Part shown: piece by piece, positions 25,934 to 63,280 of the stretch
Numbering within the stretch: position 1 is the stretch's first letter
How the letters are laid out: every line of letters starts with the position of its first letter
Origin: Pseudomonadaceae bacterium
GTDB lineage: Bacteria; Pseudomonadota; Alphaproteobacteria; UBA2136; UBA6156
Reading direction: 5' to 3'
Assembly: GCA_024236095.1 (NCBI GenBank)
Contig: JACKLD010000012.1
Location: forward strand, 214,291-278,290
Length of the DNA: 64,000 nucleotides
Notes under the pieces: model-generated
Database searches by the model: none
Told to the model about the DNA's origin: nothing
Seen by the model: only the letters and a program-made list of their open reading frames with translations
Translations under genes and position numbers: made by a program

Positions 25934-26140
25934 GTCACCAAAGCGGCGCGGGCACGTCATAGGTACATTGTGGGGATGCTTCCGCCCGTCTTCAAGGGAT
26001 ACAAAGGTATACCTGCCCATCTCTGTGGCGTTTTGGCCCCGACCTCTGCCCGATGCAATGCCCATGAGAACACGGAGACCACCATACGCCATCACCACGC
26101 CCGCAGGGCCTCATTGCGAGCGCCGTGCGGCAATCTCCCC

Positions 26141-26319
26141 TCCCGTTCATCAACTTTGGAAACTCATTCAAAAACTGGCGGAACGGGAGGGATTGCCGTC
26201 GCTCCGCTCGGCGGCCTGCGGCTCGAGCCCATGCCCGTAGGTCGTATCGAGAGTTCTCACCCTCCCGTTCATCAACTTTGGAAACTCATTCAAAAACTGG
26301 CGGACGGGAGGGATTCGAA
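26141..26319. repeat. Two tandem copies of a 58-bp hairpin unit, each ending in a copy of the tRNA-Ser 3' end (att-site direct repeats)
   Basis: CCCTCCCGTTCATCAACTTTGGAAACTCATTCAAAAACTGGCGGA(A)CGGGAGGGATT appears at 26141-26198 and 26259-26319. TGGCGGAACGGGAGGGATTCGAA equals the 3' end of tRNA-Ser at 31909-31931. Confidence 0.65.
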
Positions 26320-26483
26320 TTGAAGAAATAATGCTTTAATTTGATTCAGTTAAAAAATTTTCTAAAAATCCCAAGGCCCCTATTTAAGCCCCCATAACAA
26401 TCCGCTTTTTACTTTCAAACACTTGATTCATAAGTACTAATCCTTACTATTCATCAATACTGTAGGTTATAAATCATCTCTCG

Positions 26484-26942
26484 TCAACTTGACGTGCATG
26501 CAGATACAGCTCTGCTGTATACCCTAACCGATTCAATTGTATTATTTTCAACAAAATCCCAGAAATCTTCGCTAAACTTTAATCTAGGGTTGAAGGCGAT
26601 TGAAAAACCACTTGAAGCTAACTTTTTCAAATTTAAAGCTTCTGCAAACCACTCTAGTACATTGAGAGGGTTTGAATGCACGCTGGGCTTCTGTGCCACA
26701 AATACTAAATGTCCACCATCACGGTAAAACTCATCAGATAAAACAATAAAACACTCCAAAAACGGCCAATCATCAAAAGTTGAAGGAATACCACCGGGAG
26801 TAGTGATTAAATCTTTCTTCCGGTGACACGCAATTCTTGAAAAAGCATATTTTTCATCATCAAGTAGCCCATTATTAATATAGGCAAATTTTGTATTCTT
26901 AGAATTTGTAAATTCAAAACTTTCGGAAAAAAATATTCTTAA
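26484..26942 (-). pseudogene. Decayed gene remnant (no ATG; frame open to 26942) in a very AT-rich stretch
   Basis: The ORF-track M at 26757-26759 is a TTG. The frame continues upstream with ...KYAFSRIACHRKKDLITTPGGIPSTFDDWPFLECF... and no ATG. Confidence 0.3.
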
Positions 26943-27259
26943 TTATCTCACTTCTAGATGTTTTTTGTTCTAACGGTAACGATGCTTGAGCATCCTCAAT
27001 AAGTGAAAACGCATAAACACCAAAACGGATTTTTCCCTCACTCATTCGAGTTACCTCTCCATTGATTTCTTAGAAACTTCATCCACCACTTTCACATCTG
27101 AAAACCAGAAGTTTTAACTCTCCTCGCACAACAAGTTATTAAGTTAATTCAACGGGTAGATTATATAATAAAATTCAAATCGTAAGTCAAACTTTACAAT
27201 ACTACAGTGCCGCTGTAATCTTCTTGTGTTAAGGCTTATTTTGTTGTATACGAAACGGC

Positions 27260-28291
27260 ATGATAAATAATGTAAAGTCTGCCGTTTGTGACCCAAAGCC
27301 AATAATTACCTTGGGTGTTCCGGCGCGTAATGAGGCTCAAAATCTCCCACGGTTGGTATCCTCCCTTCTACATAATCAACAAATTGTTCAGGATCGATAT
27401 CATTTACAAACACTTATTTGCATAAATGGCTCAACTGACAAGAGCGAAGAAGTCGCCTGTAGTTTGGGGGGTGACCCACGTTATCAGGATTTAAACATTA
27501 GTGTGTTATCATCTGATGCCGGGAAAATGGCTGCACAACAAGAAATCTGCCGCCAACGGCAGGGTGAGTGGGTTGTTTTCGCCGACGCTGATACTGAATT
27601 GGATCAAAACTGCCTAAATGGCTTGTTGATCGATGCGGAGCAACATCCGGAGGCACAGGTAGTATATGCTGATACTATTCCACAATGGTCTGGAAAATTA
27701 AGTTTGTTTGACTGGATGCTCAGCGTTCACTATCAGCAACCTGATGTTTTAACGCATCGTCACTACTTCCAAGGGCGTAGCTTTTTGATTAAATGCCCCG
27801 ATGTTTTTCTCTCCACGATGCGGAAAGGTGAGGGTTTGGAAAAGGCCTATCCTCGATTTTTAAACCTTCAAGCAGGGCCACAAATTGACGATGTGTACTT
27901 GTCACGTTTGATTTTCGACAAGTACGGCGCTGGATCAATGTTAAAATCCCCTTCGGCAAGGTTGAACTATGTTCCGCCCCGCAGCATGGCAGATTACTAC
28001 CGAGGCATGAAACGCCTGCTTATTGAGATTCATCGGCTGGATATTTTGTATCCTGAACATGCTCACTTACAGCGAGATTATTTCCAGCGCCGGACAATTC
28101 TTAAACGTTGGGCTGGATTGACGGCCTCAACCCAGTTGCGTCATATGGGTTACAAGAGCTTTGACCATGTGGTGAGGGGTATTGTTAAAATGCAGATTGC
28201 AAAAGGGTATTTGTTCCCAAATTCAGAAACAGAGCTTTGGCCGGAGACGAGGACAACCAAGTCCTTTGAGCAGGAGGATAAGGAAGTATAA
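27260..28291 (+). CDS. Glycosyltransferase family 2 (GT-A fold)
   Basis: ITLGVPARNEAQNLPRLVSSL N-terminus and a DAD (DxD) motif in VVFADADTELD. Soluble, low GC. Confidence 0.7.
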   Translation: MINNVKSAVCDPKPIITLGVPARNEAQNLPRLVSSLLHNQQIVQDRYHLQTLICINGSTDKSEEVACSLGGDPRYQDLNISVLSSDAGKMAAQQEICRQRQGEWVVFADADTELDQNCLNGLLIDAEQHPEAQVVYADTIPQWSGKLSLFDWMLSVHYQQPDVLTHRHYFQGRSFLIKCPDVFLSTMRKGEGLEKAYPRFLNLQAGPQIDDVYLSRLIFDKYGAGSMLKSPSARLNYVPPRSMADYYRGMKRLLIEIHRLDILYPEHAHLQRDYFQRRTILKRWAGLTASTQLRHMGYKSFDHVVRGIVKMQIAKGYLFPNSETELWPETRTTKSFEQEDKEV

Positions 28292-28893
28292 TGAACGATT
28301 ATTCAAAGCTTAATTTGGGGTGTGGACAGAGGCCGAATAACAAGTTCCCTCGGCCATGGTTGAATGTCGACCGAGAGGGGGCGGTGGCTGATATAACATG
28401 GGATATTGCTGACCTGCCGCAAGCATGGAACGCCACTTTTGATGAGGTTCGTGTTTCCCACGTTTTAGAGCATTTCTTTTTGGCTGAGGTACCGAATGTT
28501 CTTGCTGGGTGGTTACGGGTTTTGAAACCGAATGGAGTGTTGAGGGTTATTGTACCAGACTTGGATATTATTCTAAAAAATCTTCAGGATGGGATTGATG
28601 CAAAAGGGCGTACAGCCCTGTCTACCACCGAAACCACTCCTGTACTCGCCCAAATATACGGGATTGGTTATGATCAGGCTTCTACGGGGACACACTGGCG
28701 GCACCGGATGATTTACAATGAGGCCATGTTACGTTCTATCCTTCTACAAACGGGTCAGCTCACCAATATCACGAGATATTCTAAGGTTGATGATCCTGCC
28801 TATGGTTTTGGAATAGTGGATGATTCTCAAAATATCTTTTCACTTGGCATGAAAGCCGATAAAGTAACAACGCATGAAATGATGGGGGTTTAG
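28291..28893 (+). CDS. Class I SAM-dependent methyltransferase
   Basis: LNLGCGQRP motif I and VSHVLEHF, with a Methyltransf_11/23-like layout. The ATG overlaps the upstream stop (TAATGA). Confidence 0.7.
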   Translation: MNDYSKLNLGCGQRPNNKFPRPWLNVDREGAVADITWDIADLPQAWNATFDEVRVSHVLEHFFLAEVPNVLAGWLRVLKPNGVLRVIVPDLDIILKNLQDGIDAKGRTALSTTETTPVLAQIYGIGYDQASTGTHWRHRMIYNEAMLRSILLQTGQLTNITRYSKVDDPAYGFGIVDDSQNIFSLGMKADKVTTHEMMGV

Positions 28894-29991
28894 ATGCCTA
28901 TTTTAACAGATGAACGCCAGAAGTATTTTGCTGATTATGGCGGTATTGCCTTGGGTTTAAATATTGCACAGGAGTCGGCAAACACCGTTCCCATGTTATT
29001 TACCCCGCCTCATCAATGTGTGGCGAAAGACGACATAGCAGCTGGAAATGTGGCGCTTGCTATGTTTCGGGGTAAGAAAGTTGTTTTAAAGGCGTCAACG
29101 GGTGATCGTGACTTTACCGAACATGCCAAACGCGGGGTTGGTACCTCTCGTAACCGTAAATCTTTGTTGGTTGATGTTGGAACTACTTGGGAGGCTGATG
29201 TTCTTCCACAGTTTGTAAATGAGTCGGGTGATGTACGCTCTATTGTTTTGCAAGAATTTGTAGCTTTGCCTGATAATGCCTACGCGATTGTACATGCAAA
29301 GGCCGATGAAATGCTGATTGAATTTACTGTGGATGGGGATCGCTTCTTACTTTTTGTTAATCATAGGAATGGGGCAACCTCCCTTGAAACAAGTCGTCAT
29401 GATGGGGATATGACCTCACTACATGGCCGAATTGACGTAAACCATTTTGCGGCGATGATGCGGGATATGTACAAGGTTGTAGGGTTTGATTTCAATATTG
29501 AATGTTTTATGAATCGTAGCTTAGTTTCAATCATTCAACTTCGCCCCGTGCCTCAAGATATACCCCACGATCCTTTAATCACGGCCAAGATTGCCCAACG
29601 TCTAGTATTGCCAACACAGCCCCCTTTGCATCATACGCGTTTTGTGTGTGGGCTGGTGGATAGCTATGGTGTTATCCAAACAAATGTAGAAGCGGCTCAT
29701 AATGTTGGGCAACCTGATACCATGTTGGTACTGCGAGATACCCCTGACTTGCCTTGGGAATATCCTTTTTTTGCCCAACGGGCAGCTTCCAGCCTAAGAA
29801 CAGTTTTTGTGGATGTTCACAGTGCTTCGACTTTATCTCATGATCCGACGGATTTACCTATGGACTTGGGTGTTCGAGAACATTACCGGCGTTTTGCCGC
29901 CCCACGTTTTCAAACAACCGAACTTGTTGGCCGAAATGTTGAAATCCTTATGGACGGGCACGAGGGAGTCATGGATGATCATGGCCGGTAA
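28894..29991 (+). CDS. Hypothetical protein (365 aa), unknown function
   Basis: Starts 1 nt after the MTase stop. No motif I can assign. Co-operonic with GT2, MTase and Nudix. Confidence 0.55.
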   Translation: MPILTDERQKYFADYGGIALGLNIAQESANTVPMLFTPPHQCVAKDDIAAGNVALAMFRGKKVVLKASTGDRDFTEHAKRGVGTSRNRKSLLVDVGTTWEADVLPQFVNESGDVRSIVLQEFVALPDNAYAIVHAKADEMLIEFTVDGDRFLLFVNHRNGATSLETSRHDGDMTSLHGRIDVNHFAAMMRDMYKVVGFDFNIECFMNRSLVSIIQLRPVPQDIPHDPLITAKIAQRLVLPTQPPLHHTRFVCGLVDSYGVIQTNVEAAHNVGQPDTMLVLRDTPDLPWEYPFFAQRAASSLRTVFVDVHSASTLSHDPTDLPMDLGVREHYRRFAAPRFQTTELVGRNVEILMDGHEGVMDDHGR

Positions 29992-30529
29992 ATCAAAATC
30001 AACGAAGATGAGAAAACGTATGACACAAGATCGTAACCGTACCGTGATGATTAAGGGTAAGCAGGTCAATTTCGTCTTTTTGGGTTCGGAGGCTAAAATT
30101 CCCTTTGATAAGGTGACAAGCGTATCAGTCATTCCTTTTACGAAGGTTGGGGATGTTGTGGCGGTGCGTAACCCACGCGGGATTGATATTCCTGGAGGGC
30201 ATGTGCAACAGGGTGAAACCTCCATTGAGCAAGTGGCTCACCGTGAAGTGGGTGAGGAAGCCTACGCCAAAATGGATTCGGTTGAAGTTGTTGATGTTAT
30301 TCAATCTGACTACTATGGTTCAGCACCCGACCAGCTTACTTACATGGTTATCATGATGGGGGAAGTAAGTGAATTAATGCCGTTTGAGGTTAATGATGAA
30401 ACCACAGAGCGTCAGATTATGCCCACACAAGATTTCCTTACCGCCTATTCGGGTGGAGATCGAGGTGATATGGAGGCCCTTTTAAAGGCTGCGATTGAGA
30501 AACGTGCTATGGGGATGGGGGGACGTTAA
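29975..30529 (+). CDS. NUDIX hydrolase
   Basis: Nudix box GGHVQQGETSIEQVAHREVGEEAYA. The start overlaps the upstream gene by 17 nt. Confidence 0.75.
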   Translation: MIMAGKSKSTKMRKRMTQDRNRTVMIKGKQVNFVFLGSEAKIPFDKVTSVSVIPFTKVGDVVAVRNPRGIDIPGGHVQQGETSIEQVAHREVGEEAYAKMDSVEVVDVIQSDYYGSAPDQLTYMVIMMGEVSELMPFEVNDETTERQIMPTQDFLTAYSGGDRGDMEALLKAAIEKRAMGMGGR

Positions 30530-31908: not shown

Positions 31909-32002
<94 letters not shown>

Positions 32003-36645: not shown

Positions 36646-36760
36646 AACCTGGCAATGAGCTACTCTCGCGTGCCTTAAGACAAACTACCATCGCCGCTGG
36701 AGGGCTTCACGGCCGTGTTCGGAATGGGAACGGGTTTTTAACCTCCGCCAATGTCACCAG
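36646..36760 (-). rRNA. rrf: 5S ribosomal RNA
   Basis: Reverse complement ...CCGAACACGGCCGTGAAGCCCTCCAGCGGCGATGGTAGTTTGTCTTAAGGCACGCGAGAGTAGCTCATTGCCAGG matches the conserved 5S helices. Confidence 0.85.
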
Positions 36761-36861
36761 GAAACGATTCCCAACACAGGCGTTGCGTGTCAATAACTTC
36801 AAGAAACCAATTGCTTGCGTCAAGGTTGCTGCCGCGTTTCAGATCTGCGGTGCAAGGTAAA

Positions 36862-39585
<2,724 letters not shown>

Positions 39586-54857: not shown

Positions 54858-56369
54858 TCAAGCACCTTCAAAAGCTTGACTCTGCCATGCCACGCTCAAA
54901 ATCCTGCGCACCAGCGCAGCGTCGGCACTGTGGTCGAAGTGGCCGAACTCCGGCGCCATGGTCTGCGCAGCGGCAAAACTGCCCATCGGCACCACATGCA
55001 CCTTGGGGGGGCGTATCTGCCCGCCCTTGCAGCCGGCCCGATACGGCTCGAAGCGCAACTCCATCTCGGCATGCAGGCGTTTGGCCACGCTTGCCAACAG
55101 CTCGGGGGCAACCTCGCCCAGCGGGCGGCTCACCTCCACCAGCCATTGCGGCGTGCGCTCGGCCACGTTGTGACCGAACAACGCCTCACGCACAAACACG
55201 CCATGGTTCACCAGCGCCATGTTGATGTTCGCCAATGCCTCCAACACCCCGTCCTCGCGGAAACTCTCTCCCAGCCCGCACAGGCGCACCACCGGCCCCT
55301 TTAGCGCCACCGTCAGCGGCTCGGCCTGCAATACCTTCACAATCTGGCCGGTACTCACCGCCAGCAACCCCGACATGTTGCTCACCACCAGCAGATATTC
55401 GCGCCCGGCCTCCACCTTGTGCGCGGGTAAGCGGCGGTAATTCCGCACAAACCGCCCGTCGGCGTGCACGTCCTCCACCGGCACGAATTCATAAAACACC
55501 GCACCATCGTCCTTCAGCCGCAAACGTTGGCGGATATTCACATCCTCCTGCCACGCCAGCACGCCGGAGGGCCCGTAATACCACTGCATCCATTTCAGGT
55601 TGGGCAGGCCGCCCAGCACGTAGGCCAATTCGGTGCGCTGCAGCGCAATGTCATAGCCGCTGAAGGCATACAGCTGTAAATTCGGCACCAACTCGCGCAG
55701 CGGCACAAAGCGGCTTTCCTGCTGGCTGATGTACAGCGCGAAATCGATCAGCGTTTTCGGGTGCGCCACCAACACCGCCACCTCGCGGCCGTGCTGACGC
55801 AACTGGTCCAACATACAGGCAAAGCCCTGCAAACGGTTGCCGTTCTGTTCGCTCAACCCCGCCATGCGCGGCAACGTCCACCGCTGCCTGAACCACCCGC
55901 GCCGCATATCCACCGCTGTATGGAAACCCATCACCGGTACCTGCCCAACCCGCTTCAGCGGCTCGGCCTCACCAAGGTAGAAGAAGCTCCCCTTCACCGC
56001 CAGCCCCTGCTCACCCAACCGCGCCTTGATGTGTTTCTCTGCCGCCAAAAAGTCATCCGCCACATGCCCGTCCAGCGGCGCCGCCTGCCCGCGCCACGGC
56101 ACAATCGCCAGCGGCTTGGCACGGCTCACCAAATTGGGGCTTTGCAGCACTTGCGCAATCGGCTGCCCCGGCGGCTGCACCATCTTGCCCAGGGCCTCGG
56201 CCCATGCCTTGGGGCTTTGCACCGGCACCGCCCGAGTGAACGTCTGGTACAGCAAATCAAAATCCCTGTACCCCGCCAACTTGGAAACCCCGTAATACGC
56301 CGCGACGCTGCACTTGCCGTTGGCCTTCAATATCCGCCGCAAAACCGCCTGCTGCACACTCCCGCTCAT
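54858..56369 (-). CDS. GH3-like (ANL-superfamily-like) protein, divergent
   Basis: The N-terminus QQAVLRRILKANGKCSVAAYYGV...RDFDLLYQTFTRAVPV resembles bacterial GH3 N-termini. I could not find the SSGTTG P-loop. The start overlaps the upstream SBP stop (ATGA). Confidence 0.5.
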   Translation of the reverse strand: MSGSVQQAVLRRILKANGKCSVAAYYGVSKLAGYRDFDLLYQTFTRAVPVQSPKAWAEALGKMVQPPGQPIAQVLQSPNLVSRAKPLAIVPWRGQAAPLDGHVADDFLAAEKHIKARLGEQGLAVKGSFFYLGEAEPLKRVGQVPVMGFHTAVDMRRGWFRQRWTLPRMAGLSEQNGNRLQGFACMLDQLRQHGREVAVLVAHPKTLIDFALYISQQESRFVPLRELVPNLQLYAFSGYDIALQRTELAYVLGGLPNLKWMQWYYGPSGVLAWQEDVNIRQRLRLKDDGAVFYEFVPVEDVHADGRFVRNYRRLPAHKVEAGREYLLVVSNMSGLLAVSTGQIVKVLQAEPLTVALKGPVVRLCGLGESFREDGVLEALANINMALVNHGVFVREALFGHNVAERTPQWLVEVSRPLGEVAPELLASVAKRLHAEMELRFEPYRAGCKGGQIRPPKVHVVPMGSFAAAQTMAPEFGHFDHSADAALVRRILSVAWQSQAFEGA

Positions 56370-57223
56370 GGCGCCTCAACCATCGCCGCCACATTCATGT
56401 ACTGGCGTGCATCATTGCCGTAATAATTCTTCAACAAGGCTTTTACTTCACCACTGACAATCAACTCGCGCATCGCCACATCCAGCATGTACTTCAACTC
56501 ACTGTCACGAGGCAGTTCAAAACCCATCGGAAAAGACCGCACAGGCTTATCCTCAATGACCCTCACCTTCCCCGGGGTTTTCTCCATATAATCCATCCCC
56601 GACCAGTACGGCATGAACATCACATCCGCCTTGCCCGCCAACATGGCTTCCACCGCCTCGGCAAACGAGACAATATCCGGCAGTACATGCAACTTGGCTT
56701 TTGGGTAATCTTCTTCGGCAATATGGATGGTCGGGTCGTTATCAATCCCCGCCACCACCACCGATTCATCGTTTATGCGTCTAAAATCCTCATCAAACCG
56801 ATGGTCATCCACCCGCACCAACACCATCACGGGGTTGTAGTAATAAGGGAGCGTCGCAAACACCTGTTTGGCCTTGCGGCTGTCAATCCAGTTACCGGTA
56901 CAGAACATGTCGAACTTGCCACCATTCAGCCCCAACGGCGTCATGCCAAAGCCGGTTTCTTCCACCCACTCAACGCTCAAACCAAGCTTTGCGGCCAAAG
57001 CCGTCACAACCTCATAGTCAAGTCCCGAGATCTCGCCCGTATTCGGCTCCACCACCAGCGCCGGAGGAATACTCGCATACCCGCACCGCAACACCCCCGT
57101 CCGCATCACCCGTTCATACGCGCTCTCACGCTGGGCAGAAGGCCCGTCCCCCTTCCCCAACCACCACACCGTCAGCGCGCTGGCCACAACCGCCACGACC
57201 AAAGCCAGAAGCATTTGCTTCAT
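56366..57223 (-). CDS. Periplasmic substrate-binding protein (SBP_bac_3-like)
   Basis: Signal peptide MKQMLLALVVAVVASA and a two-lobe SBP-like body (VLRCGY...GEISGLDYEV...DMFCTGNW). Confidence 0.75.
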   Translation of the reverse strand: MKQMLLALVVAVVASALTVWWLGKGDGPSAQRESAYERVMRTGVLRCGYASIPPALVVEPNTGEISGLDYEVVTALAAKLGLSVEWVEETGFGMTPLGLNGGKFDMFCTGNWIDSRKAKQVFATLPYYYNPVMVLVRVDDHRFDEDFRRINDESVVVAGIDNDPTIHIAEEDYPKAKLHVLPDIVSFAEAVEAMLAGKADVMFMPYWSGMDYMEKTPGKVRVIEDKPVRSFPMGFELPRDSELKYMLDVAMRELIVSGEVKALLKNYYGNDARQYMNVAAMVEAP

Positions 57224-58095
57224 TTTAATCCTCCTACAGAAAAATCATACGGCTTGGCAACAGAAACCACCCCATCAACCTCAAATAGATTGCTCCTAAT
57301 AATCCTATCGAGCTTCTGCGTCATTCGAAGCTCCTCTGTACCGGCATCTATCAAATTTTTAAGCTGTATTTCATCAGGTGCAACAACAGCCCCGACGGCC
57401 AAAAGCCACAAAGGCTGTACCCCCTTCACCTTACGGTGTTTGATTTTATTATGTTTATTATGGAACGAGTTGATCTCAGGTATGCTTATGTGGGCATCGG
57501 CCTTACGGGTTGAGACAAACATAGAAAGGTCACTAACCGGGGTTAGCTGGGGCAGACTTATCAGCTTTGCCTTTGGAAACTCTTGTCGAGTAATAACCCC
57601 CGGTGTGGTTCCGTCAAGCGCCACGAAACGAATATCCGGCGCATTTAGTCGGGAAATGTTATTATCAAAACGCGTATCATTCTCTTCTACATACACATAG
57701 AATGGCGCATAAAAAATCGGATCAGCAAAGAGCATGGAACGTGCCCGCGTCGCAGAAGATGTTGCAAACGCACAAAAAGCATCTACCCGCCCCGAAGCAA
57801 GTGCGGCACCAATATCACCGTATCCAACCTCCTCGGTCCATTCTAATTGAATATCCAAGGCCTTACCAACACTCTGCATATACTCATACATCACTCCAGA
57901 CAGCTTGCCCGTATTCACATCCTTTACAAAGAACGGCTCAAGCACGCTATACCCACACCTTAGCACCCCCGTCCGCATCACCCGTTCATACGCGCTCTCA
58001 CGTTGGGCAGAAGGCCCGTCCCCCTTCCCCAACCACCACACCGTCAGCGCGCTGGCCACAACCGCCACGACCACCGCCAACAGCATCTGTTTCAT
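57220..58095 (-). CDS. Periplasmic substrate-binding protein, paralog with low-GC body
   Basis: The first 50 aa are identical to the downstream paralog; the rest is divergent and AT-richer. The track's ORF start at 58155 is upstream of the real ATG at 58095. Confidence 0.7.
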   Translation of the reverse strand: MKQMLLAVVVAVVASALTVWWLGKGDGPSAQRESAYERVMRTGVLRCGYSVLEPFFVKDVNTGKLSGVMYEYMQSVGKALDIQLEWTEEVGYGDIGAALASGRVDAFCAFATSSATRARSMLFADPIFYAPFYVYVEENDTRFDNNISRLNAPDIRFVALDGTTPGVITRQEFPKAKLISLPQLTPVSDLSMFVSTRKADAHISIPEINSFHNKHNKIKHRKVKGVQPLWLLAVGAVVAPDEIQLKNLIDAGTEELRMTQKLDRIIRSNLFEVDGVVSVAKPYDFSVGGLK

Positions 58096-58199
58096 GAAAT
58101 CCCACCACCTTCTTTTGCCCGCCATGGTAAAGGGCTTCCCCGCCTGCGGCAACACCCTGCACCATTACAAGGCACCCCAGAAACCTCACCTCTCCTCTG

Positions 58200-58320
58200 C
58201 CAACACGAAGCCGTCATCCCCGCGCAGGCGGGGATCCACGTTACAAACAGGCCGCAGGCCTTCCATTGTTCGAACATACCAACATCGAACATTCGAACAT
58301 CTACTTACTAACATCCAACA
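58200..58320. repeat. Composite repeat (GTCATCCCCGCGCAGGCGGGGATCCA dRS3-like palindrome plus CGAACAT heptamer tract)
   Basis: Its terminal TTACTAACATCCAACATC encodes the last residues and stop codon of the GGDEF-EAL gene on the minus strand. Confidence 0.6.
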
Positions 58321-60682
58321 TCTTTTTCCCCTTCGCCGTCTTCAACCGCACCACATTCCCCTTCCCTTTCGCCTTGCCCTTGGCAGCTTTCTCCACCGTC
58401 TTGGGCGCCTCTTTCAGCGGATAATCCATCATCACCCGCCCCGCATACGCCGCGCACAACGCCTCAATGTCGGGCTGGGGCTTGGCAAACAGCCACCCCT
58501 GCCCATAGTCGATGCCCAAACTGCGCAACACGTCACGGGTCGGCTCATCTTCCACAAACTCGGCGATGGTCATGATCCCCATGCCCTTGCACAACGCCGC
58601 CATGTGCTTCACAAACAACTGGTCTTGGCTGTTGGCCACCATGTCCTTCACAAAGGCGCCGTCAATTTTCACAATGTCCACGTCCAGCACCCGCAAATAC
58701 TTGAAGCTGGTAAACCCGCTCCCAAAGTCGTCCAACGCAAAGCGGAACCCCAGCCCCCGCAACTCGGTAATAAACGCACCAATCTCCTCAATGTCGCGCA
58801 TCTCCGCCGGGTCGTGCAGCGCCATGGTTTCGGTCACTTCAAACACAATGCGGCGGGGGTCGATCTGCGTCTCGTGCAGCAACTCTTTCACCTTCGCCAT
58901 TACCGCCGCATCGCCCAAGCTCCGGCATGAGAGGTTGATGGAAATATCCGCCTCAATTCCCTGTTTCATCAATTTTTTCTGCGTCTCGAACACCCGCCGC
59001 GTCACCGCCAAATCCAACTGCTGGATCAACCCGAAGTGCTCCGCCGCATCAATGTACAAGGCGGGGCTCACCACCTTGCCGTCCTTGTCGTAAATCCGCA
59101 GCAACGCCTCAAACAGCGGTCGCTCCCGCACCCTGTCGGGCACAATCGCCTGATAATGCATCTCAAAGTCACCATCAGTCATACACTCTTTCAAACGGTC
59201 CACCCATTTCAACTGGGCTTTCACGCTGCCCACCGTGTCGGCGGTCTCGTCGGCCCGCTCCACAAACAGGCGGTTGCGCCCCATGTCCTTGGCCCGATAC
59301 ATCGCCAAATCCGCACTCATGATCAGGTGGTCAACGCCCTTCTCGTCCTGCGGATACTGCACCATCCCCATGCTCATGGTGGTGCCCAGCTTGGCGCCGT
59401 TGTAGTCCAGCGCCATGGCTTTCACCTTTTCCACAATCTTGTGGACCTTGGCCTCGGCCTTGTCCACGGGGATGTTGTGCATGATGATACCGAACTCGTC
59501 GCCGCCCAACCGCGCCACCACGTCGGTGCTGCGCATCTGCTGACGCAAAATATCCGCCACGCCCTGCAAAATGCGGTCTCCCGCCTCATGCCCGTGGGTG
59601 TCGTTCACCTCCTTGAAACGGTCGAGGTCGATGAAGATCAGCACCCCGCTGGTCTCGTGCCGACGGCTCAAGTTCACCGCCCGTTCCAACTCTTCCTTGA
59701 AGCGGGTGCGGTTCACCAAGCCGGTCAATTGGTCAGATGTCGCCATGCGGTACATGTTCTCGCGGTCCAGCTTGCTGGCGGTGATGTTGCTGGCCGCGCC
59801 CCTGTACCCCTCAAAGTGCCCGTCTTCGTCAAACACCGGCACACCTGAAAGCCGCAGGCACACCCGCTCACCGTCCTTGGCCTGCGCCCAAAACTCCAAA
59901 TCCCGATACGGCTGCCGCCGGTCCATCCGGCTGACAATCAAATCCTGCGTGGGGTTGGCCTCGCCACCTTCAAACAACGCCGAAAGCTGGCCGGTCCCCA
60001 TCAAATCCTCCGGCGCATACCCCAACACCCCCGCCACACCGGGAGAGACATAGGTAAACACCCCCGCCACGTCCACTTCCCACAACCAGTCGGCGCTGCT
60101 GGCGGCAAAGTCGCGGAAACGCAATTCACTGCGCTCCAACTCGTCCTGCGCGGTGCGGTACGCCGTCACGTCATGGGCGTGCAGCACCACCTGCCGCACC
60201 TGCCAGTCGGCATCGGGAAGCCCCTTCACCACCGCCTCCACCTGCACCCAGCCTTGCGCGGCGTGCATCTCGCGGGGGCGGAACCTGAACGCCAACGCCC
60301 CCAACGGCTTGCCACCCAACACATCGCGTACCACCGCCTGCACCGCCGCCATGTCGGCGGGGTGCACCAGCGCCGCCAATTCCTGCCCGCGCACTTCTTC
60401 ACGGTTATAGCCCAGCACACGGCTGTACGCGGCGTTCACGTAGTCCAGCGTGCCGTCTTCGTTGACAATCGCCGTCAAATCATACGCATTGTCCACCATC
60501 AACTTGTATCTGCGGCTCACCGCCGCCATTTGGCGTGTGCGCACATCCACCTCATGAGCCAACACCGCCTTCATCTGGCTGCGGGTGCGCCACCATACGC
60601 CCGCCACCGCCATCCCCGCCCCGCCCAGCATGGTGGCGTAGGGCAACACGTATTCCAAACCGGCAAACCATTGCCCAATCAT
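58301..60682 (-). CDS. PAS-PAS-GGDEF-EAL c-di-GMP signalling protein with Lys-rich C-terminal tail
   Basis: An N-terminal TM segment, two PAS-like regions, a GGDEF motif (RLGGDEFG), an EAL domain (EVTE...DDFGSGFTS...QGWLFAKP) and the tail KAAKGKAKGKGNVVRLKTAKGKKMLDVSK. Confidence 0.9.
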   Translation of the reverse strand: MIGQWFAGLEYVLPYATMLGGAGMAVAGVWWRTRSQMKAVLAHEVDVRTRQMAAVSRRYKLMVDNAYDLTAIVNEDGTLDYVNAAYSRVLGYNREEVRGQELAALVHPADMAAVQAVVRDVLGGKPLGALAFRFRPREMHAAQGWVQVEAVVKGLPDADWQVRQVVLHAHDVTAYRTAQDELERSELRFRDFAASSADWLWEVDVAGVFTYVSPGVAGVLGYAPEDLMGTGQLSALFEGGEANPTQDLIVSRMDRRQPYRDLEFWAQAKDGERVCLRLSGVPVFDEDGHFEGYRGAASNITASKLDRENMYRMATSDQLTGLVNRTRFKEELERAVNLSRRHETSGVLIFIDLDRFKEVNDTHGHEAGDRILQGVADILRQQMRSTDVVARLGGDEFGIIMHNIPVDKAEAKVHKIVEKVKAMALDYNGAKLGTTMSMGMVQYPQDEKGVDHLIMSADLAMYRAKDMGRNRLFVERADETADTVGSVKAQLKWVDRLKECMTDGDFEMHYQAIVPDRVRERPLFEALLRIYDKDGKVVSPALYIDAAEHFGLIQQLDLAVTRRVFETQKKLMKQGIEADISINLSCRSLGDAAVMAKVKELLHETQIDPRRIVFEVTETMALHDPAEMRDIEEIGAFITELRGLGFRFALDDFGSGFTSFKYLRVLDVDIVKIDGAFVKDMVANSQDQLFVKHMAALCKGMGIMTIAEFVEDEPTRDVLRSLGIDYGQGWLFAKPQPDIEALCAAYAGRVMMDYPLKEAPKTVEKAAKGKAKGKGNVVRLKTAKGKKMLDVSK

Positions 60683-61064: not shown

Positions 61065-61709
61065 CTAACGCTCGCGCGGCGCCGCCGATTCCAATTGCCG
61101 CTTCACATACCGCCCCACCATGTCTTCCAGCTTGCCGGTATTCGCTTGCCCCAAGCTGTCGGTCTCAAAGGCAAACCACAGCGCGTCATAAAACTCGCTG
61201 GGGTCACGCTCAATCTGCACCAGCATCGTGTTACTCCCCTGAAGTACCTGTCCAAAGCACCGGTTCAGTACAAAATACGCCGCCATCCGCGCTATCCGCT
61301 TGTTGCCATCCACAAACGGTTGCAGCTTGATAAGCTGCCACAACACATCGGTCGCCAAGCCAATCGGATCGCGCTTGCCCCACTCCTGATGCCACCTGGC
61401 AACCAACGCCCTGAAAGCATCCGGCACCTCCTGCGGCGGCAAGGCCCGATAGTTTTTAAATCTCGGCAAATGCACATCCTCAAAACGGAACGCCCCCGGA
61501 TGCTCCACCAAATTCACCATCGCAAAATGGTTCAACGAGCGGATAAACGGGCCCTCCAGACCAAAATGCCCTTTGCGCAACCCTTTAAACGAAAGTTCAA
61601 TATTCCTTATCAAAAACTCTCTGGACATCTCACTATTACGACGCTCATATTCATCATAAAGTTCAGGCTCTTTCGCCCTGTCAACGAACAGGACCATCGA
61701 GTTCCTCAT
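61065..61709 (-). CDS. Fic/Doc (Fido) family protein with degenerate active-site motif
   Basis: LQPFVDGNKRIARMAA aligns to the Doc-type motif HxFx(D/N)(A/G)NKR with His replaced by Gln. Confidence 0.65.
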   Translation of the reverse strand: MRNSMVLFVDRAKEPELYDEYERRNSEMSREFLIRNIELSFKGLRKGHFGLEGPFIRSLNHFAMVNLVEHPGAFRFEDVHLPRFKNYRALPPQEVPDAFRALVARWHQEWGKRDPIGLATDVLWQLIKLQPFVDGNKRIARMAAYFVLNRCFGQVLQGSNTMLVQIERDPSEFYDALWFAFETDSLGQANTGKLEDMVGRYVKRQLESAAPRER

Positions 61710-61983
61710 CCCATAATAAATCCATACCAGTCCATTTATAAAAGCTTACCGCCCTTTCGCGCAACCTTTTGACATATCGCTCATCAAAAGGATTACCCTC
61801 CCGTATTTTCCGCTCACGTTCCGCCTTTTTCTCAGGAGATGCATTCATCCACTCATCATCGGCAATCCCGATAGTATTCGCAATATCCTGCTCCCAATGC
61901 TCTCTGGCCGTCATCGGTCTCCGGCTCTCCAACAAATCCCGCAATTCCTGCGTCGTCACGGTGGGCTTGTCACTCAGTGCCAT
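61681..61983 (-). CDS. Hypothetical small protein upstream of and overlapping the Fido gene (possible cognate partner)
   Basis: 100-aa ORF whose stop overlaps the fic start by 29 nt. Confidence 0.4.
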   Translation of the reverse strand: MALSDKPTVTTQELRDLLESRRPMTAREHWEQDIANTIGIADDEWMNASPEKKAERERKIREGNPFDERYVKRLRERAVSFYKWTGMDLLWDEELDGPVR

Positions 61984-62020: not shown

Positions 62021-63280
62021 TTATCTCAAAATCAAGTCTTTCTCCCACACCCCCACATCTTCCGCCCGCAACCGAACATTAAGCCGCCACTCCTCACCTT
62101 CCAACACACTCTCCAACACATCGCCATGGGCATACAGCCACGCCAACCGCTTGCCGTCACTGGCGGGCACCCGCACCTCCAAAACTTGCCATGCCTGCTT
62201 CAGTTCCGCCTCCAACGCCGCCAGCAGGTTGTCCACTCCCTCACCGCTGACCGCCGAAACCCCCAAACCGCCCTCCGGCACCTCCACACCGTCCGCCAGC
62301 CTGTCCACCTTGTTGAACGCCACCACCCGAGGCTTGTCAGCGGCCCCAATCTCACGCAGCACCGCATCCACATCCGCCGCCTGCGCGCGCCAGTCGGGGT
62401 TGCTGGCATCGCGCACTTCCAGCAGCAGGTCGGCCATCACCACCTCTTCCAAGGTTGCCTTAAAGGCTTCCACCAATTCATGCGGAAGGTCGGCCACAAA
62501 GCCCACCGTATCGGCCAACACAATCTCCAAGCCACCGGGCAGGCGGAACCGCCGCATCAACGGGTCCAGCGTTGCAAACAACGCATCGGCCACCAGCGTG
62601 CCCGCCTCCACCACGCGGTTGAACAACGTGCTCTTGCCCGCATTGGTGTAGCCCACCAGCGCCACGGTGGGTATCTGCGCCCGCTGACGCGCCACCCGCT
62701 GCAAATTGCGCGTGGCCGCCACATCCGCCAACTCAGCCTTCAACCGCCCAATCCGCGTCTTGATCATCGTGCGGTCAAGGTCAAGCTGTCGTTCCCCCGG
62801 CCCGCTGGCCTTGCCGGTGCCGCCGCGCTGACGCTCAAGGTGGGTCCACTGCCGCACCAAACGGCTTTGCATGTAAGTCTGCCGCGCCAGCTCCACCTGC
62901 AGTTTCCCCGCCCGCGTCCGCGCCCTGGAGGCAAAGATCTCCAAAATCAACCCTGTCCGGTCCAACACCTTGGCCTGCAATCCCACCTCCAGGTTACGCT
63001 GCTGACGCGGGCTCAAACCTGCATCCACCACCACCACTTCAACCCCGTCATCCGCCACCCGCGCTTTCAACTCGTCCACCTTGCCTCCGCCAATCAGCGT
63101 GGCAGGGTTGATTTTCGACAACCTCACCCCCTCGCCGCACACTACCTCCAACCCCAGCGAATCCGCCAAGTTTTCCGCCTCATGCAACTTGGCCTCCAAC
63201 GTGCGTACGGGTGCAACCGCCCCGCTACCGCGCTCCGGCGGCATTTCCACTGCCACCACCATGGCCCTGCCCAAACTCAT
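62021..63280 (-). CDS. hflX: GTPase HflX
   Basis: HflX N-domain plus G-domain motifs (VALVGYTNAGKSTLFN, DTVGF, NKVD). Confidence 0.9.
   Translation of the reverse strand: MSLGRAMVVAVEMPPERGSGAVAPVRTLEAKLHEAENLADSLGLEVVCGEGVRLSKINPATLIGGGKVDELKARVADDGVEVVVVDAGLSPRQQRNLEVGLQAKVLDRTGLILEIFASRARTRAGKLQVELARQTYMQSRLVRQWTHLERQRGGTGKASGPGERQLDLDRTMIKTRIGRLKAELADVAATRNLQRVARQRAQIPTVALVGYTNAGKSTLFNRVVEAGTLVADALFATLDPLMRRFRLPGGLEIVLADTVGFVADLPHELVEAFKATLEEVVMADLLLEVRDASNPDWRAQAADVDAVLREIGAADKPRVVAFNKVDRLADGVEVPEGGLGVSAVSGEGVDNLLAALEAELKQAWQVLEVRVPASDGKRLAWLYAHGDVLESVLEGEEWRLNVRLRAEDVGVWEKDLILR

Follow-up and report, generated by a model that had tools for sequence, protein, structure and literature searches.

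In a 64,000-nucleotide (nt) stretch of contig JACKLD010000012.1 (assembly GCA_024236095.1, positions 214,291 to 278,290 of the forward strand), hereafter the window, two adjacent genes for polar-amino-acid-type solute-binding proteins (SBPs) of the SBP_bac_3 family start with almost the same 49 codons and then part abruptly. These genes belong to a row of four co-oriented minus-strand genes at 54.8-60.7 kb, which in the direction of transcription are a PAS-PAS-GGDEF-EAL gene, the two SBP genes and a GH3-like gene (Table 1). We call the first 49 codons of each SBP gene the leader, the rest the body, and the interval between the GGDEF-EAL and GH3-like genes the slot. The upstream SBP is P0001 and the downstream SBP is P0014, as annotated in the source metagenome-assembled genome (MAG); other P numbers are further proteins and L numbers are further loci. 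Both SBPs score above the gathering cutoff of Pfam PF00497 (26.4 bits), which bears out the description of the pair as paralogous binding-protein genes in an earlier note on this DNA, the original prediction. A GGAGGA Shine-Dalgarno sequence stands 7 nt before the downstream start codon, within the 3' end of the upstream gene, and the two SBP genes are complete and translationally coupled.

Table 1. Features of the SBP slot and its flanking genes, in window coordinates (aa, amino acids; UTR, untranslated region; pS, proportion of synonymous sites changed)
Feature	Position	Strand	Evidence or remark
PAS-PAS-GGDEF-EAL gene, 793 aa, upstream flank of the slot	58301..60682	-	Pfam EAL 198 bits, GGDEF 155 bits, several PAS models
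Spacer and 5' UTR of upstream SBP gene	58096..58300	-	Alignments, inverted-repeat finding
Upstream SBP gene (P0001), 291 aa, leader and low-GC type A body	57220..58095	-	PF00497 56.0 bits
Leader copy 1, codons 1-49: hydrophobic signal/anchor segment, linker, ESAYERVMRTGVLRCGY motif	57949..58095	-	Repeat finding, codon comparison
Recent conversion tract, upstream copy (gene nt 23-132)	57964..58073	-	1 mismatch in 110 nt, pS 0.035; exact 68-mer 58004-58071
Downstream SBP gene (P0014), 285 aa, same leader and type B body	56366..57223	-	PF00497 66.1 bits
Leader copy 2, codons 1-49	57077..57223	-	Repeat finding, codon comparison
Recent conversion tract, downstream copy	57092..57201	-	Mismatch pattern; exact 68-mer 57132-57199
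ATGA overlap, upstream SBP stop and downstream SBP start	57220..57223	-	Sequence, open reading frame coordinates
ATGA overlap, downstream SBP stop and GH3 start	56366..56369	-	Also in L013, L014 and L020, regardless of SBP body type
GH3-like gene, 503 aa, downstream flank of the slot	54858..56369	-	Pfam GH3_M 36 bits; 80-82% identical to GH3 of L013 and L020

A repeat finder returned the two leaders as 147-nt direct repeats whose starts are 872 nt apart. We found the copies identical at 136 of 147 nt (92.5%) and at 48 of 49 amino acids, and they share an exact core of 68 nt, for which 100 shuffles gave 0 matches. The similarity of the two gene copies begins at the ATG, their UTRs being different, and protein similarity breaks off sharply at codon 50: BLASTP over the whole proteins, leader included, gives 38% identity, and global alignment of the bodies alone gives 25%. 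When 1.84 billion cluster representatives were searched with the 49-residue leader (phmmer), the only 98% match was on the partner gene, and the next-best full-length leader matches reached 67% or less. The shared leader is thus confirmed with small corrections. The original prediction had near-identical 5' ends of ~150 bp with about 95% DNA identity, coding for the same first 50 amino acids, followed by divergence; the repeat and the divergence stand, the length, the identity and the 50 identical residues give way to the values above, and the proposed limits (57097-57225 and 57957-58095) were off by up to 20 nt.

The leader ends with a motif that is conserved across the family. Residues 33-49 (ESAYERVMRTGVLRCGY) are nearly invariant among all retrieved family members, and the junction between leader and body is the exact end, the last codon, of the family-invariant motif E[ST]AYERVMRTGVLRCGY. 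Pfam SBP_bac_3 aligns to residues 49-269 and 52-267 of the two proteins (profile positions 5-131 and 9-127 of 132), so that the motif includes the start of the domain. Hence, the junction is not a domain boundary and lies about five residues into the SBP_bac_3 domain.

We then compared the two leaders codon by codon (Nei-Gojobori method). Among the 11 mismatches, six are in nt 1-22, one is in nt 23-132 and four are in nt 133-147. Codons 9-44 have a pS of 0.035 (1 change in 28 synonymous sites) and a nonsynonymous divergence (dN) of 0; in codons 1-8 and 45-49 essentially all synonymous sites are changed, with nine synonymous changes and one conservative replacement. One of the 36 central codons is changed, compared with nine of the 13 flanking codons (Fisher p = 3e-6). 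For the two bodies, synonymous divergence (dS) is 2.3, which is saturated, and dN is 0.94. An RNA element was rejected as the cause of the identical tract, as Rfam had no match there and the folding z-scores were 0.10 and 0.37. Since selection on the protein cannot fix synonymous sites and there is no RNA explanation, the centre of the leader reflects a recent, probably non-reciprocal exchange spanning at least 110 nt; synonymous identity in the core between saturated flanks marks a recent gene-conversion tract rather than protein-level selection alone. The dS of the GH3 gene against its nearest relatives is 0.86-0.96, so the exchange is far younger than the splits from those relatives. Copying of 110 nt or more of leader sequence between the tandem genes thus took place very recently, in agreement with the earlier suggestion that gene conversion had homogenised the 5' ends. 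A scan of 54-61.5 kb for promoters and terminators gave counts at the shuffle expectation and nothing relevant.

The base composition of the two genes changes at the same junction. The leaders have 63-64% GC and a GC content at third codon positions (GC3) of 0.78-0.80, and the neighbouring GH3, GGDEF-EAL and MurA-like genes have 60-63% GC and a GC3 of 0.80-0.81. Native windows of 240 codons have a mean GC3 of 0.814 (standard deviation 0.018, minimum 0.771). The upstream body has 46.1% GC and a GC3 of 0.44, and the downstream body has 53.0% GC and a GC3 of 0.66. The direct measurement therefore upholds the ~45% GC that had been claimed for the upstream body; low GC is not confined to that copy, since the downstream body is also depressed, less so. 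The same compositional step is found in the independently assembled relative L013, where the leader has a GC3 of 0.79, the body 0.45 and the neighbouring genes 0.76-0.80.

Placing the two bodies in a neighbour-joining tree of 69 bodies separated them. The upstream body is sister to P0002 of locus L001 with 100% bootstrap support (53-55% identity), and the downstream body groups with P0078 and P0079 with 94% support (52% and 46% identity, respectively); the two window bodies are not sisters. The tract and the bodies are thus phylogenetically discordant. Hence, the two ligand-binding bodies are unrelated paralogues, and both are compositionally atypical. In L001 the relative of the upstream body sits in a tandem SBP array with 4-nt overlaps.

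To place the slot in its neighbourhood, syntenic loci were recovered by anchoring on the GH3 gene. We found no SBP gene in the slot of L015, L016 and L017, whose GH3 proteins are 52-56% identical to that of the window, nor in L023, L024 and the contig of P0133 (70-71%). One SBP with a third, 'type C' body is present in L014 (GH3 72-73%), at least one of type C, 66% identical to that of L014, in L020 and L022 (81-82%), and one (P0080) in L013 (80%). The window slot holds two SBP genes, whereas relatives hold none or one (at least one in L020), with other bodies. The PAS-GGDEF-EAL gene is also upstream of GH3 in L014, L015, L016 and L023, and the GH3-like gene is strongly conserved beside it in all relatives examined. 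In the SBP-free relatives the gap contains only a small opposite-strand membrane open reading frame of 66-79 aa. A conserved two-helix membrane reading frame of this size and strand occupies the spacer position in L013, L014, L023 and L024; it is absent from the window. A metagenome scan with a single GH3 protein gave no match, and a scan with an alignment gave two distant loci only.

The edges of the slot indicate how SBP genes enter it. The SBP stop codon overlaps the GH3 ATG in every occupied locus, and in the empty loci the sequence before GH3 (…GGCAAAAGA-ATG) aligns with the SBP 5' UTR of the window and of L013. The homologous part in the window is 58096-58165, the last ~70 nt of the spacer, in which 48 of 63 nt match the L013 UTR and a GGCAAAAGAA box is common with L023 and L024. 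Hence, SBP genes were inserted between the ribosome-binding region of GH3 and its start codon.

Among 128 family leaders, that of L013 is by far the nearest to the window leader, with the segment LTVWWLG in common. Between the window and L013 the leader is 76% identical in amino acids and 78-80% in nucleotides, the UTR is 76% identical, and the GH3 gene is 76% identical in nucleotides and 80% in amino acids. As the leader and UTR have diverged as much as GH3, they were inherited with the locus. The bodies have not kept this pace: the L013 body has 34-35% identity with each of the window bodies and clusters with neither. Similarly, the GH3 proteins of L013 and L020 are 90% identical, and the SBP bodies next to them are 31% identical. 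In the leader, the two window paralogues are 98% identical in amino acids to each other versus 76% to the L013 leader. Hence, the bodies behind the leader are non-orthologous between relatives, and the body was replaced in at least one lineage. Since leader GC3 is native, body GC3 is not and the bodies are not orthologous to that of L013, the proposal that a foreign body was grafted onto a native leader also holds. A mosaic in the 5' part of GH3, which would point to allelic replacement of the whole slot, was looked for and not seen: GH3 identity just follows protein conservation.

We also looked for leader sharing in the family at large, using 7260 protein pairs, most of them from proteins without a genome assignment. 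Identity of the leader before the motif has a median of 24% and a 99th percentile of 49%; a pair counted as a candidate for leader transfer only when its bodies were unrelated and its leaders were at least about 73% identical. The window pair is at 97% in the leader and 25% in the body, followed by P0189 and P0192 (94% and 27%), P0041 and P0043 (83% and 34%), P0100 and P0194 (83% and 48%), and P0076 and P0087 (73% and 28%). This last pair (L025, 9138-10876) is a tandem, ATGA-overlapping pair without a transporter, after parAB, in an unrelated low-GC genome; its codons 23-44 match at 63 of 66 nt, synonymous positions included. Leader-limited homogenisation has thus happened independently in one other genome at least, and it is not peculiar to the window contig. 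A 'Y-type' leader found on five unrelated bodies was downgraded as proof of repeated transfer, as the leaders of the whole family follow a moderately conserved consensus. A full-text literature search turned up no paper describing leader-limited gene conversion for SBP genes.

SBP content varies at a transporter locus too. The permeases of the ABC operons at L001 (1321-4586) and L007 (80-2249) are 94% identical, and different SBP genes stand beside them: P0002 and SBP295 in L001, and P0106 and P0041 in L007, with bodies 31-35% identical. The clade of the upstream window body is thus found in the ABC operon of a relative and not in that of the source MAG.

We explain these results by a variable SBP slot with a resident leader, exchanged bodies and a recent conversion of the leader between the tandem genes, to which we give a probability of roughly three in four. 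The two earlier proposals, conversion and grafting, are then both supported as successive layers of one history. Ordinary homologous recombination would act on the slot, where SBP genes come and go, and bodies would have come by horizontal transfer or by exchange with paralogues, behind the resident leader. The invariant motif, with the leader, would supply the nucleotide homology at which RecA-type recombination starts or ends. Upstream of codon 50, exchange would be tolerated through a weakly constrained leader; downstream of codon 49, the bodies are probably too divergent, so that exchange is stopped or chimeras are selected against. The latest event would have copied about 110 nt between the tandem genes. 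As consequences, both proteins would be exported and tethered alike, and the 147-nt direct repeats, 872 nt apart, would permit deletion of the upstream body by homologous recombination.

Several points weigh against this explanation. No donor was found for either body, the closest homologues being 52-55% identical, so the case for a horizontal origin is made from composition and phylogeny. The composition is itself open to other causes: GC3 of the SBP family is often 0.15-0.35 below that of adjacent genes (L007, L008, L012, L013 and L014), and the low-GC3 members at these loci commonly carry a higher-GC leader. The SBP copy of L020 and the L025 pair are exceptions without GC3 depression, so low GC is common in the family, not universal. 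Candidate causes could be frequent transfer, fast evolution or GC-biased conversion of leaders. Because family members lie below their neighbours' GC3 in several hosts, the low GC3 of the window bodies could reflect fast evolution under AT-biased mutation, and conversion biased towards GC could in part account for the high GC3 of the leaders. The window and L013 leaders are taken as orthologous from 49 codons plus roughly 65 nt of UTR. As for the direction of conversion, the downstream leader is slightly nearer that of L013 (dS 1.36 versus 2.02), with few sites and saturated divergence. That the motif anchors recombination is inferred from where the junction falls, and the tandem structure is known from assembled sequence.

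Two other explanations accept the tract and account for it differently. Selection could be the main force that keeps the leader identical, if both SBPs dock to a common membrane partner, such as an ABC permease or the membrane-anchored product of the PAS-GGDEF-EAL gene just upstream; conversion would then merely spread the favoured leader. Family leaders are indeed unusually conserved and often common to unrelated bodies within one genome, the ABC-locus paralogues of the same MAG have a different leader type, and periplasmic binding proteins that control GGDEF-EAL enzymes are known (NspS-MbaA, PMC8967002; PruR-DcpA, PMC11194511). Codons 1-8 and 45-49 also keep their amino acids despite saturated synonymous divergence; however, codons 45-49 are within the family-invariant motif, so that only about eight codons inform on the leader proper. 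Selection on the protein gives no account of the synonymous identity in codons 9-44, and relatives with the same GGDEF-EAL gene have no SBP to dock. We consider selection an unlikely main cause, and it may contribute by favouring a common leader that docks to one membrane partner. The leader could also have been doubled by insertion, through a Campbell-type single crossover of circular or linear DNA carrying a similar leader and the upstream body into the resident leader, with the identical core as a repaired heteroduplex. This would explain the order UTR, leader, upstream body, leader, downstream body, the similarity that starts at the ATG and not upstream, and the old, different leader flanks around an identical core, and it suits the presence of the upstream-body clade in a tandem array with 4-nt overlaps in L001. 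However, no donor with such a leader is known, the leader being found only at the window locus and L013, and the L025 pair has an older tract of the same kind with no compositional sign of recent insertion. With one genome, such an insertion is indistinguishable from later conversion; we hold it to be improbable as well.

The remaining alternatives conflict with more of the data. Since the source is a MAG, a repeat could have been collapsed or mis-joined in assembly or binning, and sequence coding for the motif confuses assemblers: the short-read contigs L020 (1-50) and L022 of a relative, from two samples, end exactly inside DNA coding for TAYERVMRTG, which points to repetition of the motif or leader in that organism also, with broken assemblies as the result. 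In the window, however, the copies differ at 11 positions, both reading frames are intact, and the Shine-Dalgarno sequence and ATGA coupling are precise. The junction between the upstream body and the second leader spans 22 nt in which the leaders differ at six, so it is not a mis-join inside an exact repeat. With the same step from native leader to low-GC body in the independent assembly L013, and an independent tandem pair in L025, an assembly duplication, which the original prediction had named as its undoing, is very unlikely. A recent tandem duplication of the whole gene, followed by very fast divergence of the bodies under a conserved leader, would account for tandem genes of similar length and the same Pfam family. 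It would have to reconcile body dS 2.3 and dN 0.94 with a leader-core pS of 0.035, and a body GC3 of 0.44 with one of 0.66, and each body is closer to bodies of other organisms than to its neighbour; we give it almost no credence. Programmed variation, with a conserved-leader expression site and exchangeable bodies as in the Mycoplasma Vpma/Vsp/Vsa or Neisseria pilE/pilS systems, is suggested by the conserved 5' end and signal region before divergent bodies, which resembles the vpma and vsp families (PMC2268961). But both window copies are full length, in direct and not inverted orientation, each with its own start codon and ribosome-binding site; no recombinase is among the neighbouring open reading frames scanned at 50-63 kb, no inverted repeats are at the leaders, and no silent or truncated cassettes are in the 64-kb window. 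Such a system is exceedingly improbable here.

As to the proteins themselves, the nearest solved structures are amino-acid-binding proteins, such as AncCDT-1 (5t0w). Every NCBIfam equivalog is far below its cutoff, including the best, EhuB (49.9 and 28.1 bits; cutoff 190.9). Residues 4-22 form a hydrophobic segment of ~20 residues (Kyte-Doolittle maximum over 19 residues, 2.43), and no lipobox was seen in the sequence; this long hydrophobic N-terminus may be a membrane anchor rather than a cleaved signal. No ABC permease or ATPase gene is present at the locus, where the neighbours are the PAS-GGDEF-EAL, GH3-like, Fic, HflX and MurA-like genes. The same MAG has two permease-linked paralogues, P0041 and P0106, at another place on the contig, outside the window; they stand beside a 221-aa permease and an ATPase and carry a different leader type from the window pair. 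NCBIfam OlsH, a GH3-type lyso-ornithine lipid synthetase, matches the product of the neighbouring GH3-like gene weakly, at 41.5 bits against a cutoff of 620.

A bolder possibility is that the leader is a functional plug, its transmembrane helix docking any SBP body to a shared partner, attractively the PAS-GGDEF-EAL enzyme, and serving at the same time, with the invariant motif, as a homology handle that captures new bodies. We regard this as quite unlikely. If it were true, a RecA-based 'sensor cassette' slot would switch the amino-acid-like signals that feed cyclic di-GMP (c-di-GMP) turnover and a GH3-type ligase, and genome-specific selection on the leader would explain why unrelated bodies repeatedly share leaders within a genome.

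Bacterial genes assembled by recombination with foreign alleles include the pneumococcal pbp and the neisserial tbpB and porB mosaics. Like these, the window genes join a native and a foreign segment in one reading frame with the breakpoint in conserved sequence; unlike these, the replacement is nearly the whole mature protein, between distant paralogues (35% identity or less) and with no known donor. Interlocus gene conversion and concerted evolution, known for tufA/tufB, ribosomal RNA (rRNA) operons and the PE/PPE and ESX genes of M. tuberculosis (PMC12046097, PMC8223754, PMC6002687), share with the window a sharply bounded tract of near-identity in diverged paralogues, homogenised synonymous sites and paralogues closer to each other than to orthologues. 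The window tract of about 110 nt is in the usual bacterial range. It differs from typical cases in being limited to the export leader and first motif, the other 240 codons being only 25% identical, and in an anchor that appears to be a family-invariant peptide motif and not overall gene similarity. Hence, the locus belongs to the known class of interlocus gene conversion combined with mosaic genes that have horizontally replaced segments, a clear and ordinary form of bacterial mosaicism.

Other systems resemble the window in part. In the Mycoplasma Vpma/Vsp/Vsa families a conserved signal-peptide region likewise precedes unrelated mature parts; there, the 5' UTR is also highly conserved, and one promoter, silent copies and a dedicated tyrosine recombinase act through inversions at 5' UTR sites (PMC2268961). 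None of this machinery is found at the window, and the UTRs of its two copies differ. SBPs signal to GGDEF-EAL enzymes in NspS-MbaA (PMC8967002, PMC8079147) and PruR-DcpA (PMC11194511), and the window resembles these in having an SBP-type gene in an operon with a membrane-bound GGDEF-EAL protein. However, the window SBPs are of a different family. MbaA has a periplasmic domain for docking; in the window enzyme, a short hydrophobic stretch at the N-terminus is all that precedes the PAS domains. With the binding proteins of polar amino-acid ABC transporters, the window SBPs share the PF00497 match, the solved amino-acid-binding relatives and MAG paralogues that flank a permease and ATPase; they differ in the sub-cutoff equivalog scores and in the transporter genes, which the window locus does not have.

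We made several further observations in and around the locus. The spacer at 58096-58300 contains a GC-rich palindrome (…CATCCCCGCGCAGGCGGGGATCC…) like repetitive extragenic palindromic elements, with its core at 58218-58233 and inverted-repeat arms at 58127-58148 and 58223-58244; its spurious translations are WIPACAGMT and VIPAQAGIH. A Fic/DOC-family gene (61065-61709, minus strand) with a low-GC patch (0.42-0.45 at 61500-61900) lies between HflX (62021-63280) and the GGDEF-EAL gene, and in L015 and L016 HflX directly adjoins the GGDEF-EAL gene; this suggests a second accessory insertion into the conserved region. At ~26000-30000 there is a low-GC island (0.42-0.46 against about 0.60) with a family-2 glycosyltransferase (27260-28291), a methyltransferase (28291-28893) and an open reading frame without a Pfam match (28894-29991), which is probably a horizontally acquired polysaccharide-modification cluster. 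At 36647-39578 and 31912-32002 (both minus strand) the window also holds 23S and 5S rRNA genes and a transfer RNA gene; Rfam gave no 16S rRNA gene within the 64 kb, and 16S may be unlinked from 23S-5S in the host organism. The source MAG is labelled Pseudomonadaceae, and its closest relatives with GGDEF-EAL/GH3 synteny are labelled Alphaproteobacteria (L014, L016) or 'uncultured Pseudomonadales' (L015), so the Pseudomonadaceae label looks unreliable.

What sets the window apart within its class is a breakpoint pinned to an invariant peptide motif and the recurrence of leader-limited homogenisation in an apparently membrane-anchored, often transporter-less family of binding proteins. The locus is a clean natural example of how recombination can break at a short invariant peptide motif, with a resident export and anchor leader re-used before interchangeable ligand-binding domains. 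For this family, leader and body have to be analysed separately, since trees and orthology calls made on whole genes will otherwise be wrong. Short-read assemblies also fail at the leader that the copies share, as happened with L020 and L022. Should the leader prove to be a docking element, the slot beside the c-di-GMP enzyme would be a simple model for the evolution of modular sensory input.

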